Below are positions 59,502 through 64,000 of a DNA stretch of 64,000 bases, piece after piece. Within the stretch, counting starts at the first letter, position 1, and the number at the start of each line of letters is the position of its first letter. A program made the position numbers and the translations under genes. The DNA lies in the IMG/VR virus record IMGVR_UViG_3300030329_005959, positions 40,266 to 104,265 of that record; one strand, given 5' to 3'. The notes beneath the pieces were generated by a model that saw only the letters and a program-made list of their open reading frames with translations, made no database searches and was not told the DNA's origin. Source of the stretch: a virus.

Positions 59502-59581
59502 TCGAAATAATCATTCTGATTTGTTTGATTTTACTCGCCATCACTAGAAGCTAGGATCAAACGAAACAAACTAAATAAGTG

Positions 59582-59611
59582 GGTCGCGGAAACGCGGCCT
59601 TTCTTTTTTTT
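59582..59611 (+). terminator. Intrinsic terminator
   Basis: GGTCGCG-GAAA-CGCGGCC-TTTCTTTTTTTT. Confidence 0.75.
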
Positions 59612-59630: not shown

Positions 59631-59707
59631 ATAAGTCGTTGATACTTAGGGAGTTACGGCGAGCGGCGGGGCGCGTCCTCGTAACTCGTTGACGCTTAGT
59701 GACTTAT
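59631..59707. repeat. 77-bp double-palindrome element, copy 1
   Basis: ATAAGTCGTTGATACTTAGGGAGTTAC-N23-GTAACTCGTTGACGCTTAGTGACTTAT. Confidence 0.9.
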
Positions 59708-59901
59708 GACTTCTTTCTCCTCCTAAAACTCTCGTTCTTTTTGCTGCGCCAGTCTTGGGGACCAACCCCACGCTTACGCAACCACTCATCACAGGCTTTG
59801 CCTACTGTAGTAGATAGCCCACGCATGTAATTCATTTGTTTCTCCTCTGGAGCTACTTCCTTTTTTGGTCTGCCTCGACCTCTGTTATTCGTCGTGTTCA
59901 T
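59704..59901 (-). CDS. AT-hook-like small basic protein
   Basis: RGRGRPKK. Confidence 0.6.
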   Translation of the reverse strand: MNTTNNRGRGRPKKEVAPEEKQMNYMRGLSTTVGKACDEWLRKRGVGPQDWRSKKNESFRRRKKS

Positions 59902-60220
59902 AAAAGGGATGATTGTATTCTTCTGGTTCCTTCCACTGATGGCATTCCTCGGGCCTATGATTCATAGAAGCGCAAACTAGAGCCTGTCTGCTCATCTGTA
60001 TCTTTTGCCACACACTCTTTTTCCACGTTTGCCAGTCTGGGCTATATGCTTTTTGCCACAACCCATCTACTAAAAAGTAGGTAGTCGCATGAATTATTTC
60101 ACACGTTATGGGATCGTAGTAAGTCCGCAACAAGGCTTGCGTGTTCTCGCATGGGAGAATGTGATCTGCGATGAACTTGCTCTGCCCGTTGCCAAGGGCT
60201 ATATGCTCGTTGTCGTTCAT
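59885..60220 (-). CDS. Hypothetical protein
   Basis: 111-aa ORF in the minus-strand operon. Confidence 0.55.
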   Translation of the reverse strand: MNDNEHIALGNGQSKFIADHILPCENTQALLRTYYDPITCEIIHATTYFLVDGLWQKAYSPDWQTWKKSVWQKIQMSRQALVCASMNHRPEECHQWKEPEEYNHPFYEHDE

Positions 60221-60221
60221 G

Positions 60222-60398
60222 TTAAAATTCTTCTACTCTATGCCCGTCCTCGCAAGTCTCTTCGTATCTAGTGCCGTTACCGTATTGACCTTCACCATCC
60301 AATACTTTCTGGATAGCATCGGCTCGGCTCACGGCATCCACGACAGCTTCCTGCCAGTGGATCTCTCTAAGGTATACTTTGTAGGGTCGTTCTTCCAT
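60222..60398 (-). CDS. Small hypothetical protein
   Basis: MEERPYKVYL...; start moved to ATG 60398. Confidence 0.55.
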   Translation of the reverse strand: MEERPYKVYLREIHWQEAVVDAVSRADAIQKVLDGEGQYGNGTRYEETCEDGHRVEEF

Positions 60399-60399
60399 C

Positions 60400-60744
60400 T
60401 TACCACCACGAATCGTATGCAACTTCGTATCCCTTGGCAAGATATTCTCTCGCCACCCTGATAAACTCCAACGTCTGAGCTTGGTAATGCTCACAGAAAC
60501 GAGAGTCACCACCGAAAAACAAACCACCTGTCTCGGGCAACATCTTATTGGTTACAACCAACTCCAGCATCTCAAGGTCTGCCTCGACCAACTCCAGAGG
60601 AACACAATTAAACTGTTTGGTCCCACCCTTCTTGCGATAGAGTTTCTCCATCCAACCGTGCAAGGCATTGTGCTTGCGCCAATAGGCGATTTCTTTTACT
60701 TCGCCCTCTGGACTCCTAACTTTCCCGTATGCGTCTAATCCCAT
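60400..60744 (-). CDS. Conserved phage early protein
   Basis: MGLD.Y...EIAYWRKHNALHGWM...Y.SWW. Confidence 0.75.
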   Translation of the reverse strand: MGLDAYGKVRSPEGEVKEIAYWRKHNALHGWMEKLYRKKGGTKQFNCVPLELVEADLEMLELVVTNKMLPETGGLFFGGDSRFCEHYQAQTLEFIRVAREYLAKGYEVAYDSWW

Positions 60745-60753
60745 AACGCGGCT

Positions 60754-60781
60754 ATTATATCAGGGTATCGGGTCTGTGCAA
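60754..60781 (-). promoter_or_regulatory. Strong early sigma70-like promoter (extended -10, UP A-tract)
   Basis: TTGCAC-N16(TGn)-TATAAT; ATG 9 nt downstream. Confidence 0.8.
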
Positions 60782-60808
60782 GCCCTTTTTTATTCTTTTT
60801 TATCCTTT

Positions 60809-60885
60809 ATAACTCGTTGAAACTCAACGAGTTACGGGCGCGGGGCGGGGCCGCAGCCGTAAGTCCTTGAGGGTGAGTGAGTTGT
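60809..60885. repeat. 77-bp double-palindrome element, copy 2
   Basis: ATAACTCGTTGAAACTCAACGAGTTAC-N23-GTAAGTCCTTGAGGGTGAGTGAGTTGT. Confidence 0.9.
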
Positions 60886-60961
60886 GGCGGGAGCAACGGG
60901 ACTTGAACCCGTGACCTCTAGCGTGACAGGCTAGCGCTCTAACCTACTGAGCTACGCCCCC
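60885..60961 (-). tRNA. trnD: tRNA-Asp(GTC), encoded CCA
   Basis: GGGGGCG acceptor; CTAGC-CTGTCAC-GCTAG anticodon arm; TTCAAG T loop. Confidence 0.93.
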
Positions 60962-60987
60962 TAACCAAGAAGCATTGTGAGGATGAG

Positions 60988-61185
60988 TCAACCAAAGATT
61001 AAAAGTCCTTCTTGTGAGCCATAGACTTCCCTCTCGCCACAGCATTCACATTCATATTTGGTAGCATCAGGCTCAACCCCCGCTTGCACTTCACCGCAAG
61101 ACATACATAACCCTTCGTTGCTGTCTGCCATTGCTAGATCAAGCAACAGTTCTATTTTGTCGTGGCTAGTCATTGGATGGGTCAT
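60988..61185 (-). CDS. Small Zn-ribbon protein
   Basis: CMSCG...EPDA..YECECCG. Confidence 0.7.
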   Translation of the reverse strand: MTHPMTSHDKIELLLDLAMADSNEGLCMSCGEVQAGVEPDATKYECECCGEREVYGSQEGLLIFG

Positions 61186-61388
61186 ACTGGTGGGTGTAGC
61201 TCTTGTGCCATATCGTATAGATTTTTTTCTGCTTCGTCAAGCAACTTTCCAATCGCTATGATCTGATTTCGGACCTCCCTTGCGTTGCCCTTGCTTTCTT
61301 CATCTCTCGTAATTGCGAGAGACTTCATAGACATCTCGTAGTAGTTAAGAAGTTTTTCTGTGTGTTCTTCCCAGTTTGGAGTTTTCAT
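61182..61388 (-). CDS. Hypothetical helical protein
   Basis: 68-aa ORF with ATGA coupling. Confidence 0.6.
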   Translation of the reverse strand: MKTPNWEEHTEKLLNYYEMSMKSLAITRDEESKGNAREVRNQIIAIGKLLDEAEKNLYDMAQELHPPV

Positions 61389-61401
61389 TTTTAAAAGAGA
61401 T

Positions 61402-61556
61402 GAGAGGAAGGATTTATATTATTACCTTCAACTTTCAGCTTACACATGTTTCAGTTTAGCCTACTCGCACTCCACACATAAAAACTCAGTCGGTTGACCC
61501 CTGTCTAAATGCACAGATACCTTATCGCTGTGTTGGACGATTATTCAGTCACTCTC
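61402..61556 (-). ncRNA. Structured ncRNA resembling the manA RNA motif
   Basis: 5' GAGAGTGACTGAATAA...AAGGT...ACCGAC...TGTAAG...GTTGAAGGTA...AATCCTTCCTCTC; closing GAGAG/CTCTC stem and GAAGG/CCTTC stem; no ORF; downstream of its own promoter. The family match is from memory. Confidence 0.55.
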
Positions 61557-61606
61557 GATTGGGGAGCTACCCCAAAGTAGAAATTGTTATCGTTGAAGCT
61601 GCGAGT

Positions 61607-61634
61607 ATTATAGCAGGTTTCGGGGTGGGGTCAA
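61607..61634 (-). promoter_or_regulatory. Strong early sigma70-like promoter
   Basis: TTGACC-N16(TGn)-TATAAT with upstream A-tract. Confidence 0.8.
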
Positions 61635-61670
61635 GCACTTTCGGCTATTTATTTTCTTTTTTTTTCATTT

Positions 61671-61747
61671 ATAACTCGTTGATCCTCAACGAGTTACGGG
61701 GATCGGCCCCGCCCCCCGCCGTAACTCACTGATACTCAGTCAGTTAC
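61671..61747. repeat. 77-bp double-palindrome element, copy 3
   Basis: ATAACTCGTTGATCCTCAACGAGTTAC-N23-GTAACTCACTGATACTCAGTCAGTTAC. Confidence 0.9.
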
Positions 61748-61870
61748 GTCCAACTTGGCGAAGTTTTCTACTACGATATCGCAAAGATGCCCGATGATTC
61801 CATCGTCCATTCCATCAAGGAAGGTTATGATGTCTTGCTGGATCTGTTCCCTGCACTCTTCTTTGTTCAT
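61736..61870 (-). CDS. Small hypothetical protein (44 aa, not in ORF track)
   Basis: MNKEECREQIQQDIITFLDG...; ATGA coupling; stop codon lies inside element 3. Confidence 0.5.
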   Translation of the reverse strand: MNKEECREQIQQDIITFLDGMDDGIIGHLCDIVVENFAKLDVTD

Positions 61871-62076
61871 CTTATGTTAGCTACATCTTTTTTGATCTGC
61901 GCTATGCGCTTTGCGAGTAGACTGCCCTTGTCGTTGGGTTCATCGGTGTGACCCTCTAACAAGTCATCTAGTTGGTCATAAACAAGCTGGTAACTACATG
62001 CCCGTCTCATCTGCGGCAACCACCTAGCCACATTGATTAAACCTTTCGTTTTGCGTGGTCGTCCTCCCTTGTTCAT
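61867..62076 (-). CDS. Small protein with AT-hook-like N-terminus
   Basis: KGGRPRK. Confidence 0.55.
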   Translation of the reverse strand: MNKGGRPRKTKGLINVARWLPQMRRACSYQLVYDQLDDLLEGHTDEPNDKGSLLAKRIAQIKKDVANIR

Positions 62077-62279
62077 ATAGACTCTAGCAATTCTTTTGTT
62101 TTTTCGCGGTCAGCAATCAGCTTGTCAATGAGACCGCCCATCTTGACAAACTCTTTCTTAGCCCAAAGGACATCTTCACTGTCCTCGCTCCGATCAATGA
62201 TGAGGAGCAACGCTTGAGCGGTGCCTCTCCAAGTCGGGGAAACCCGAATGGTTTTTTTGATTTTTTCTACTTCGGTCAT
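62073..62279 (-). CDS. Hypothetical protein
   Basis: 68-aa ORF with ATGA coupling. Confidence 0.6.
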   Translation of the reverse strand: MTEVEKIKKTIRVSPTWRGTAQALLLIIDRSEDSEDVLWAKKEFVKMGGLIDKLIADREKTKELLESI

Positions 62280-62337
62280 CTATTTCGATATGTGCATATT
62301 ACTAAGAGCAGACTGGTTACGATTACGAAGGTGATGT

Positions 62338-63030
62338 CTAGCATGGCTCCACAACAAACCCCGTTTCGTCCTTCTTTGCAAGTCCTTTTTCAAGCAACCC
62401 GACAATCACACCCCGTGGATCTTGAAAGCGCAAGTCACTATCATCACCATCAACAACCTTTATACCTTGCCAATGGCTTGGTAGGTGGTCACGAAAGACT
62501 ATCGCCACGTTGCCTCGGATTCCTGGCCTTTTGCATATCTCATGGATGAGTTCATCAGGTGTCTCTTCACTCCGTGAGTATGTCAGGTGGTAATTGTTCG
62601 GGAGCTTACCGTCTAAGAACCTAAAGAATCTTTTCAAGTGTTTGGTGTAGTCGTAGAATTGAATCGTAGGAAAGTATTTAACAACCAGATTTTCCCACGG
62701 TAAGTCACTTGTGAGATTCAAACGGAAGCAACTCTTTAATTCCTTTCGCGATGCGCTTTTAACCGAGCTTTGGATTTCTTTGTATAGCTGCGATAGGAAT
62801 CCATCCCTATCCTCGAAAAACCTTCGTGTCTTTTTAATTCGGGCATCTTGAACGGTATGCATGATGCCACGACCTGCCGTATTGAGACAAGCAGCAGAAC
62901 AACCAGCAGTAGCAGAAGAACAAACATTTTTTCCTGATAGGTTATATGGTGCAAGGTGCAAGCCGTAGGTTTTCCAACCATACTTCTCACCCTTGATTGT
63001 TTTATGGTTTCCTGCGTTAAGCAATTTCAT
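62338..63030 (-). CDS. GP88-like protein (Cys-cluster, radical-SAM-related)
   Basis: C...GC...CL, RLNLTSDL, FYDYTK, NYHLTYS and DGD.SDLRF.D. Confidence 0.75.
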   Translation of the reverse strand: MKLLNAGNHKTIKGEKYGWKTYGLHLAPYNLSGKNVCSSATAGCSAACLNTAGRGIMHTVQDARIKKTRRFFEDRDGFLSQLYKEIQSSVKSASRKELKSCFRLNLTSDLPWENLVVKYFPTIQFYDYTKHLKRFFRFLDGKLPNNYHLTYSRSEETPDELIHEICKRPGIRGNVAIVFRDHLPSHWQGIKVVDGDDSDLRFQDPRGVIVGLLEKGLAKKDETGFVVEPC

Positions 63031-63301
63031 TTGTGGTAGGTGTCTTGTGGTTTGCTGTGTTGTCGAAGCCGCTAATTTTTCTTTGCTTCGGTCCTTCTTC
63101 TTCCTCCTCTATGATATTGATATCCCAAAGCACAAGTCCATCATATTCTGGCTTGCAGTCAATAGCAGATTGCACACTGTCCTTTACTTTCCCCGTGTTA
63201 TTAAAGAAAGCGGTGTTTGATATAACTTCCCCTGTGTTGCCGTCATAATAGCAAATGGAAAACGATTTGGTAGTGAGTCTCGGTGGTGTAATTCCTGACA
63301 T
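63017..63301 (-). CDS. Hypothetical protein
   Basis: ATG 63301 is 7 nt downstream of the -10 box. Confidence 0.6.
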   Translation of the reverse strand: MSGITPPRLTTKSFSICYYDGNTGEVISNTAFFNNTGKVKDSVQSAIDCKPEYDGLVLWDINIIEEEEEGPKQRKISGFDNTANHKTPTTNEIA

Positions 63302-63308
63302 GGTGGGG

Positions 63309-63337
63309 AGTATAGCACGGGGGTGCGGGTCTGTCAA
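63309..63337 (-). promoter_or_regulatory. Strong early sigma70-like promoter
   Basis: TTGACA-N17(TGn)-TATACT. Confidence 0.8.
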
Positions 63338-63363
63338 TTTTAATGCATTAAAAAACCTCCTTC

Positions 63364-63440
63364 ATAAGTCGTTGTCCCTCAACGACTTACGAGCGCGGGG
63401 TGGCCCCGCCGCCGTAACTCCTTGATACTCAACGAGTTAC
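63364..63440. repeat. 77-bp double-palindrome element, copy 4
   Basis: ATAAGTCGTTGTCCCTCAACGACTTAC-N23-GTAACTCCTTGATACTCAACGAGTTAC. Confidence 0.9.
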
Positions 63441-63463
63441 GAGGGTTAAAACCCAAGCATGAG

Positions 63464-63510
63464 AAAACCCCGCCCCCCGCTAGTAACCCGAAGGCGCGGA
63501 AGACGGGGTT
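63464..63510 (-). terminator. Intrinsic terminator after the DUF932-like gene
   Basis: Minus strand CCCCGTCTTCCGC...GCGGGGGGCGGGG-TTTTC. Confidence 0.6.
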
Positions 63511-63528: not shown

Positions 63529-63999
63529 CTATGCAGGGAGGGCGATCTCCTGGGCGTCTACGATCTCGGGGGCATGACCTGCGATCTTGTCGAACACCGA
63601 CTGCACCGTCATGGTGCGTTGCGGCAACTTGGACAGATCGCCGCCCTTGAGATGCTCGGTGATCCCGTTGTAGAGAGTCCAAAGGGAACCACCCTTAAAC
63701 TCCTCATGGCTCGGAGCTTCAAACTCCTTCACAGCCTTGTAAACGTCACGGGCGGGGAACGCCTTTGCGTCTACGAGGTCGATCACCATGTCGGCAGCAC
63801 TTGCCTTGGGAACCTCAACACTCTTGTAAGCGTCGATGCGCTTGCCCATGTCGGTCCAATGAGACACAACGCGAGAGATGGCAGACGAGAGAACGCGAGG
63901 AAGATCCTTCACGATGTTCTTGGTGTGCCTACGGGCGAGCTTCACATCAGAAGAGAAGCAAAGGTTTTCGCAAACCATCATCTGGTTGCCGATACAGAT
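63529..63999 (-). CDS. DUF932-like protein (5' end outside the window)
   Basis: VCENL...RHT and SLWTLYNGITEHLK; frame open to the window edge. Confidence 0.7.
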   Translation of the reverse strand: MCIGNQMMVCENLCFSSDVKLARRHTKNIVKDLPRVLSSAISRVVSHWTDMGKRIDAYKSVEVPKASAADMVIDLVDAKAFPARDVYKAVKEFEAPSHEEFKGGSLWTLYNGITEHLKGGDLSKLPQRTMTVQSVFDKIAGHAPEIVDAQEIALPA

Positions 64000-64000
64000 G

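Follow-up and report, generated by a model that had tools for sequence, protein, structure and literature searches.

Five copies of a compound repeat lie in the early region of a phage represented by IMG/VR record IMGVR_UViG_3300030329_005959, one viral contig of 104,265 bp whose bases 40266-104265 make up the 64,000-nucleotide stretch analysed here (the window). Each copy consists of a 27-bp imperfect palindrome, a 23-bp GC-rich spacer, and a second 27-bp imperfect palindrome. With a probability of roughly one half, these elements would be boundary and promoter-architecture modules, in which two docking sites for an IHF-type protein are paired around a GC-rich, attenuator-like segment. The evidence comes from the anatomy of the elements, the absence of covariation between mirrored positions, the match of the arms to the IHF consensus in the correct register, their location relative to gene ends and promoters, and their distribution; from these, we infer the kind of binding protein, the bending of the DNA, and the effect on transcription.

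Anatomy of the Element

The five copies are laid out as follows:

59631-59707, element copy 1: arm 59631-59657, GC spacer 59658-59680, arm 59681-59707
60809-60885, element copy 2: arm 60809-60835, spacer 60836-60858, arm 60859-60885
61671-61747, element copy 3: arm 61671-61697, spacer 61698-61720, arm 61721-61747
63364-63440, element copy 4: arm 63364-63390, spacer 63391-63413, arm 63414-63440
364-440 of the genome (outside the window), element copy 5: 50 bp from arm start to arm start, as in the other copies

A sequence-only reading of this DNA had described four copies; the positions of all four were exact, and the genome holds a fifth one, at 364-440. Scanning the whole contig returned exactly ten arms, all within these five elements. 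With up to three mismatches allowed, the arm consensus was matched three times in the window, as against 0.00 matches expected from 100 shuffles; the palindrome is not a chance occurrence, and the observation is real. The arms carry from one to seven mismatches to their consensus, both extremes being found in copy 2 (one mismatch at 60809-60835, seven at 60859-60885). The G+C content reaches 87-96% in the spacers vs. 39-43% in the arms, and the mean pairwise identity between copies is 0.57 for the spacers and 0.73-0.80 for the arms.

The record is classed as linear and 94% complete, and genes are cut at both contig ends, so that the five copies can be regarded as one early region broken by assembly. 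A metagenome contig that extends past the end of the window reveals at least one more element, some 450 bp after position 64000.

Occurrence and Spacing in Related Phages

The exact arm pattern was searched in IMG/VR contigs and was found in at least 119 stretches, which together hold 914 arms, including 559 distinct ones. Doublets make up 81% of the arm groups, and neighbouring elements are separated by a median of about 1 kb. Five large element-bearing genomes have a DnaE-type polymerase in common, with 49-70% identity, which places them in one broad phage family. In one relative (G089, the record of L091), the core of this polymerase is carried in two adjacent frames, corresponding to query residues 4-497 and 493-851.

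The spacing of 50 bp from arm to arm is found in 56% of the distinct elements. The remaining ones have lineage-specific spacings of 34, 38, 42, 48, 51-53, or 58 bp, and orthologous copies in close relatives can differ by 1 bp, with nearly unrelated spacer sequences between conserved arms and flanks. Because the spacing varies both between lineages and between orthologues, the fixed 23 bp must be seen as a trait of this genome and not of the element class. The earlier description of a spacer constant in length and variable in sequence, thus, holds for the five copies of this genome, whereas spacers range from 7 to 31 bp across the family. The notion of a fixed-geometry platform finds no support as it was stated, with spacings of 34-58 bp in related phages and orthologues off by 1 bp.

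The 23-bp spacers have a G-rich first half and a C-rich second half on either strand, with weak dyad symmetry. In some genomes of the family, the spacers are almost identical from one copy to another. No GC hairpin with U tract of the Rho-independent terminator type was found inside the five elements of this genome. Hairpins are clearer in other lineages, and the 31-bp spacer class, the only one with the features of a Rho-independent terminator, forms a canonical terminator whose tetraloop is variable and which has a T run. The lineage with 31-bp spacers (L028, L035, L043, L006) also carries an extra dyad downstream of the element, TTGTCAAG and TATGACAAA on either side of an A-rich tract, and the TTGACA-like boxes that flank its elements on both sides face inward.

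Double-Stranded DNA Site or RNA Structure

Among the 559 distinct arms, mirrored positions vary independently of each other, Watson-Crick pairs being as frequent as predicted by multiplying the column frequencies. Positions 5 and 23, for instance, pair in a fraction of 0.50 (0.48 expected) and show C:C or G:G in 45% of cases, while the values are 0.51 (0.47 expected) for positions 8 and 20, and 0.71 (0.74 expected) for positions 9 and 19. Pairing from arm to arm, assessed in 339 elements, is also at chance level. Along the arm, conservation follows a mirror-symmetric profile with its lowest point at the central triplet. Independent mirrored positions combined with symmetric conservation point to a double-stranded site read by a symmetric dimer. 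Judged by their sequences, the arms act as double-stranded protein sites, not as RNA hairpins.

The competing possibility is that the elements act as RNA, with arms and spacer folding in early transcripts and causing termination, 3'-end protection, or cleavage by RNase III. The early processing sites of phage T7, which are cut by RNase III, provide the model for such a function. It would suit the location of the elements at the 3' ends of transcription units, the very stable folds predicted for the five copies (z from -3.5 to -6.9), the true terminators formed by the 31-bp spacers of other lineages, and the single perfect palindrome with T run that comes after tRNA genes in Bacteroidota. Nevertheless, hundreds of copies show no covariation within or between arms, sequence is conserved instead of pairing, the would-be loop is the least conserved part, and the stable folds are unlike each other between copies. 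The G:T-type mismatches of the ten arms favour the non-coding plus strand, by 10 to 5 in a hand count; no U tract follows the elements in this genome; copy 4 has its own terminator upstream; and an Rfam scan of the elements returned no family at E values up to 10. A function as RNA is, on this evidence, very improbable.

Match of the Arms to IHF Sites

The IHF consensus used for comparison, WATCARNNNNTTR, comes from Escherichia coli. The half-site of the arm reads TCAA-CGAS-TTA and is compatible with (W)ATCAR-N4-TTR, so to speak in duplicate: the arm corresponds to a symmetrised IHF consensus, with TCAA-N4-TTA in both halves. The invariant or near-invariant bases among the 559 arms (A3, A4, T10, A18, T24, and T25) are those of the CAA and TTR of the consensus, and the centre base at position 14, the dyad, is A or T in 79%. 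The TCAR-N4-TTR core occurs on at least one strand in 97% of the 559 arms, and the full 13-mer in 59%. In this genome, the corresponding counts are ten and four of the ten arms. The window contains seven exact 13-mers, three of which are inside elements:

59632-59644, minus strand, exact match to WATCARNNNNTTR in copy 1
61722-61734, minus strand, exact match to the IHF consensus in copy 3
63415-63427, minus strand, exact match to the IHF consensus in copy 4

The first and the last of these are the bottom-strand matches that had been reported for arm 1 of copy 1 and arm 2 of copy 4, and both are indeed exact.

IHF kinks DNA at two sites located 9 bp apart (PMC8421141), the nearest kink being 6 bp from T44 of the TTR (PMC5829579). 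By our reading of the H' site numbering, the kink falls at the last AA step of WATCAA. In the consensus arm, AA/TT steps are found at 9|10 and 18|19, exactly 9 bp apart and symmetric about the dyad at position 14, so the arm displays the 9-bp spacing, the dyad symmetry, and the last AA of WATCAA that characterise the kinks of IHF/HU sites. The earlier proposal that each arm holds two back-to-back IHF/HU sites is better replaced by one symmetric site for one dimer, with the dyad on the W of WATCAA. Its more general claim, that the arms resemble IHF/HU-type sites, is borne out by a consensus matched in the correct register, without base-pair covariation. The arms, thus, look like candidate sites for a DNA-bending protein of the IHF/HU kind, and their mirrored half would suit a homodimer or binding in either orientation.

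No gene of the DNABII family (PF00216) was found in this phage or in three relatives, one of which is 100% complete, and none of ten conserved small proteins showed a DNA-binding domain. As the phages examined encode no IHF/HU protein, the binder is most likely a host protein.

Other candidate sites were considered. None of the operators CIRCE, NrdR, LexA, parS, dif, Fur, and FNR is known to match the arm. The GTnAC sites of EbfC/YbaB were rejected, G1 and C5 being among the less conserved positions of the arm. HU also binds an inverted repeat in Porphyromonas gingivalis (PMC3969353), but this is a different thing, its two arms measuring 77 bp each; the paper served only for its remark on the 9-bp kink spacing.

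Gene Ends and Promoters

The genes of the early region are here on the minus strand; they are small and mostly of unknown function. Read in the sense direction, every copy is preceded by the end of a gene or tRNA or by a terminator. Behind four of the five copies, there is an A-rich tract, then a strong promoter of the sigma70 type, and then a start codon with almost no leader. The features around the elements are the following:

59581-59610, plus strand, terminator-like hairpin with T run, closing the rightward genes 20 bp from copy 1
60754-60808, minus strand, promoter module of copy 2, read from the sequence
60885-60961, minus strand, tRNA-Asp(GTC), matching Rfam tRNA with 71.5 bits, last gene of the unit ending at copy 2
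61607-61670, minus strand, promoter module of copy 3, 11 of 12 matches in the promoter scan
63309-63363, minus strand, promoter module of copy 4, 11 of 12 matches in the promoter scan
63459-63510, minus strand, intrinsic-terminator-like hairpin with U tract (-36.2 kcal/mol, z -3.17), ending a DUF932-like gene

The contacts with upstream units that had been read from the sequence were all recovered. The minus-strand open reading frames (ORFs) 59704..59901 and 61736..61870 end inside arm 2 of copies 1 and 3, respectively, and the CCA of the tRNA-Asp touches copy 2, base 60885 being common to both. Copy 4 is preceded by a stable hairpin then UUUUCUC, at about 63459-63510 on the minus strand, which was found by folding and overlooked by a simple terminator scan. 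Since this copy has a separate intrinsic terminator upstream, the element itself is unnecessary for termination there. Copy 1 closes off the leftward early region, at the point where this converges with the rightward genes, and is the only one of the five without a promoter after it.

The promoters have a common layout. Copy 2 is followed by a 27-bp A-rich tract on the sense strand (60782-60808), TTGCAC (60781-60776), a 16-bp spacer, and TATAAT (60759-60754), with an ATG at 60744, which makes the mRNA nearly leaderless; the promoter scan required four of six matches in the -35 hexamer, of which TTGCAC falls short. Copies 3 and 4 are followed by A-rich tracts of 36 and 26 bp, respectively; the -35 box is TTGACC after copy 3 and TTGACA after copy 4, and the -10 boxes, both TG-extended, are TATAAT (behind 16 bp of spacer) and TATACT (behind 17 bp). 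The latter two promoters are the best of the region. The distances of 27, 36, and 26 bp between element and -35 box, as first described for copies 2, 3, and 4, were confirmed, and copy 5 adds a distance of 37 bp. The idea of a near-constant helical face is, thereby, sustained for this genome, in which there are two distance classes (27/26 and 36/37 bp) one helical turn apart.

The copy 3 promoter leads into a manA-like RNA. This structure (61397-61575, minus strand), which separates the promoter from the small ORF 61182..61388, matches Rfam RF01745 with 47 bits and an E value of 5e-10, without reaching the gathering score of 55.2. In the region adjoining copy 5 (441-545 of the genome), the sense-strand heptamer CTAACAG is repeated, immediately upstream of the element and one base before a tiny hydrophobic ORF. 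In relatives such as L023, L050, L087, and L116, TCTAAC stands exactly 17 bp past TTGACA, like a variant -10 box.

The GP88-family protein (62338-63030) and the DUF932-like protein (63529-64000, truncated) are the only widely shared early proteins. The phage further encodes tail genes of the lambda J/minor-tail type, a DnaE-type polymerase, and a ClpB-like protein. It is present in marine metagenomes of several studies, whereas the region was matched in no RNA run with usable reads. No close cultured relative was found by megablast of the region or blastn of one element, and its DnaE has less than 30% identity to that of any isolate. Host assignment from the binning of metagenome-assembled genomes (MAGs) was discarded as inconsistent, element-bearing phage-like contigs being found in Enterobacterales, Verrucomicrobiales, and Flavobacteriaceae bins.

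Recombination and Cassette Movement

The elements had also been proposed to shuffle promoter-gene cassettes. More broadly, a site-specific recombinase could act on them, or they could be repeats of the REPIN/MITE kind, inserting themselves between genes and moving such cassettes around. In favour of this, the elements form arrays that bound small genes at a median spacing of about 1 kb, and the copies of some genomes have near-identical spacers. Two events are in keeping with the proposal: an indel of 124 bp, found in two marine metagenome runs, starts exactly at the edge of copy 3 (61748), and one cassette occupies a different place in a close relative. In the indel variant (61748-61873), the 124 bp, including the whole 44-residue ORF 61736..61870, are replaced by four bases, and the upstream gene seems to end in the copy 3 arm.

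The assemblies of this phage family also tend to break in element arrays, as seen at both ends of this contig and in many IMG/VR contigs (L011, L023, L049, L052, L090, and L097), probably because the repeats tangle the assembly graph. Apparent element-to-element joints in metagenome contigs (e.g., 59665 to 63403) were not taken for deletions, one side comprising only about 30 letters; they are most likely other element copies.

Against such a function, homology breakpoints are barely enriched near the elements (7.5% within 10 bp, vs. 5.1%), and none lies inside them. No tyrosine recombinase gene (PF00589) was matched in four genomes. Furthermore, the spacers of this genome are all different and the arms are conserved, which argues for selection on the arms and not for recent copying. 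The arm resembles the loxP arm, but a loxP-like site was rejected, there being no recombinase gene and a variable centre of only 3 bp, too short for the crossover region of a tyrosine recombinase. One indel at an element edge and one relocated cassette, thus, remain from the shuffling proposal, and a dedicated recombination role is weakly supported; recombinase sites or mobile repeats are an improbable explanation of the elements. By analogy with the promoter-early stem-loop (PeSL) cassettes discussed below, homologous recombination between copies would likely be a by-product and not a demonstrated function.

The Same Palindrome in Bacteria

The palindrome is also found in bacterial chromosomes, with 17 sites in an Akkermansia genome and 15 in a Fibrobacter genome, vs. 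none for a control pattern. In Akkermansia, single sites lie in the promoter regions of unrelated genes (dnaA, argS, an argC-like gene, and genes for glycosyl- and acyltransferases). A second palindrome, TACAGCATT-N3-AATGCTGTA, accompanies the Akkermansia sites (L149-L164, G003) at a distance of 9 or about 20 bp, and one of these sites is 16 bp upstream of a sigma54-type box, TTGGCACGGCGTTTGCA. In Bacteroidota, the palindrome stands between a tRNA end and an integrase gene, an arrangement that looks like the edge of an integrated element. Seven Bacteroidota MAGs (L123, L127, L130, L139, L141, L144, and L145) show a perfect palindrome with a T run, located 5-12 bp past the tRNA 3' end and at 80-180 bp from a tyrosine integrase gene. 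The neighbourhoods of sigma54 promoters and of integrase genes are classical IHF contexts.

Genes of the IHF/HU family (DNABII) number five in Akkermansia G003, vs. one or two in five palindrome-free Verrucomicrobiota (G008, G009, G012-G014); this higher paralogue count is suggestive only. A literature search on Akkermansia promoter motifs yielded nothing relevant.

Tentatively, and with some doubt, the palindrome could be the recognition code of a homodimeric architectural protein, IHF-like or as yet unknown. An uncultured phage family (marine and freshwater, with genomes of 100-150 kb) would have this protein in common with Bacteroidota integrative elements and with chromosomal promoters in Akkermansia and Fibrobacter. 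The paired sites, with a GC hairpin between them, would in that case be nucleoprotein insulators of a new class, keeping the early transcription units of the phage apart and boosting them.

Proposed Mechanism and Its Main Competitor

The preferred reading is that the element would serve as a boundary module between early transcription units, working mainly as double-stranded DNA. A dimeric architectural protein of the IHF/HU (DNABII) type, likeliest that of the host, would bind both 27-bp arms symmetrically and with high affinity, and on each arm the dimer would introduce kinks at the two AA/TT steps, which have a spacing of 9 bp. The GC spacer, with its G-run and C-run, may act as a stiff linker that is difficult to melt; once transcribed, it could form a small hairpin attenuating or ending read-through, like the stem-loop of a PeSL. 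The bent nucleoprotein would be held at one of two distances, one helical turn apart, upstream of the A/T tract and sigma70-type promoter, where it might favour the use of the promoter and isolate heavily transcribed neighbouring units.

Several observations weigh against this proposal. The spacer hairpin energy barely exceeds that of shuffled controls (-9.8 vs. -8.9 kcal/mol). Arm-to-arm spacing has no common helical phase across lineages, which speaks against a single conserved three-dimensional architecture. In 155 of 678 flanks from relatives, a -35-like CTTGACA behind an A/T tract faces into the element, so the outward promoter arrangement seen here is not general; these inward boxes prefer distances of about 2, 21-23, 29-33, 39-43, and 50 bp from the element, and many are without a credible -10 box. 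Strand calling from the ORFs around the elements proved unreliable. Compared with the E. coli IHF consensus, the arms are under tighter constraint, G21 and A22 being about 90% conserved within the 'N4', and their mirrored consensus stands where E. coli IHF sites have an A-tract half. Proteobacteria, the group best known for IHF, yielded no exact palindrome, and the sporadic occurrence of the palindrome in Verrucomicrobiota (6 of 81 genomes) fits a lineage-specific factor better than a universal one. Finally, all five large genomes tested are from one phage family, so that a conserved phage protein of unknown nature is possible.

Part of this evidence would be accommodated if the arms were the operators of a sequence-specific dimeric regulator other than IHF/HU, encoded by the phage or the host, and acting as a promoter switch or as a polymerase roadblock at unit ends. 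Palindromic sites with independently varying half-sites, the tight constraint on them, and their sporadic, lineage-specific occurrence in bacteria would all suit such a protein. The single phage family also has several conserved small proteins of unknown fold, and in relatives an arm often overlaps or comes after a -35-like box, as an operator would. Nevertheless, in the IHF register, the conserved blocks read TCAA at about 3.5 bp and TTA at about 11 bp from the dyad, a match that an unrelated fold is unlikely to produce by chance. No helix-turn-helix, ribbon-helix-helix, or other DNA-binding domain was detected among the early or conserved small proteins, and the Akkermansia and Fibrobacter sites lie before unrelated housekeeping genes, unlike a regulon. 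Such a regulator is a serious candidate, albeit an unlikely one.

If the IHF-type reading is correct, the early region of a large uncultured phage family is assembled from copies of one standard module, by which a DNA-bending protein of the host is brought next to each strong promoter. The arm would then represent a sharp, symmetric candidate recognition sequence of the IHF/HU type outside Proteobacteria. The presence of the palindrome at chromosomal promoters (e.g., dnaA) of the culturable Akkermansia muciniphila and Fibrobacter succinogenes makes it directly testable. The motif is also a sensitive marker of early regions in this phage family, and probably explains the assembly breaks found there.

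Comparison with Known Systems

The sequence-only reading had not recognised the element as a described one, and no published description of the palindrome pair was found; literature searches with 10-mers of the arm returned unrelated primers only. The attC sites of integrons and the cores of tyrosine recombinases differ from the elements in two respects: PF00589 is missing from the four genomes searched, and attC is kept by structure, as a folded single strand, whereas the sequence is conserved here without covariation.

The RIB/RIP elements of E. coli, reportedly the subject of work by Boccard and Prentki (in 1993) and Oppenheim et al. (also in 1993), are said to be bacterial interspersed mosaic elements (BIMEs) with an IHF site between two repetitive extragenic palindromic (REP) sequences. 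Common to both systems would be a repeated extragenic composite structure, with GC-rich palindromic DNA and IHF sites, and a position at transcription-unit 3' ends. Compared by description only, the order is inverted, with two IHF-like sites around one GC segment in the present case, and RIB/RIP elements are chromosomal, whereas these are carried by a phage.

Compared by sequence, the arms and IHF sites, such as lambda H', have the same TCAA/TTR spacing, the dyad on the W, and the kink steps 9 bp apart. Like the sites of IHF-assisted promoters, the elements lie upstream of strong promoters with A/T-rich tracts, and the bacterial palindromes are found beside integrase genes and near a sigma54 box. 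However, the arms are mirror-symmetric, whereas the E. coli sites are asymmetric with an A-tract half, and they have extra conserved bases in the N4 and are always paired around a GC segment.

The closest analogy is offered by the PeSL cassettes of T4-type phages, whose stem-loops have the form Gn-loop-Cn and terminate transcription in vivo (Arbiol et al. 2010, PMC2839356; Comeau et al. 2014, PMC4122927). PeSLs and the present elements are both repeated intergenic modules of a hyperplastic early region, located after the stop codon of a small upstream gene. Indels between relatives are associated with PeSLs, and may be so with the elements, given the one 124-bp indel and the one relocated cassette. 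Both join a GC segment (a Gn-loop-Cn stem-loop in PeSLs, a candidate stem-loop of this type in the elements), an A/T-rich tract, and a strong sigma70-type promoter, which makes the earlier analogy an apt one; in this genome, the strong promoter with A/T-rich upstream tract is present at four of the five copies. The described PeSLs have neither flanking 27-bp palindromes nor a link with IHF, and their stem-loop often overlaps the promoter core. They were defined in T4-type myoviruses, whereas the phage studied here has lambda-J-type tail genes; a search for Gp23 gave no match, the control likewise matching in none of the genomes. Terminator activity and mini-circles have been shown for PeSLs, while the present elements are candidate attenuators. 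If they do work as proposed, the idea of a composite terminator-promoter embodied by the PeSL reaches beyond T4-type phages, and gains a protein-binding layer.

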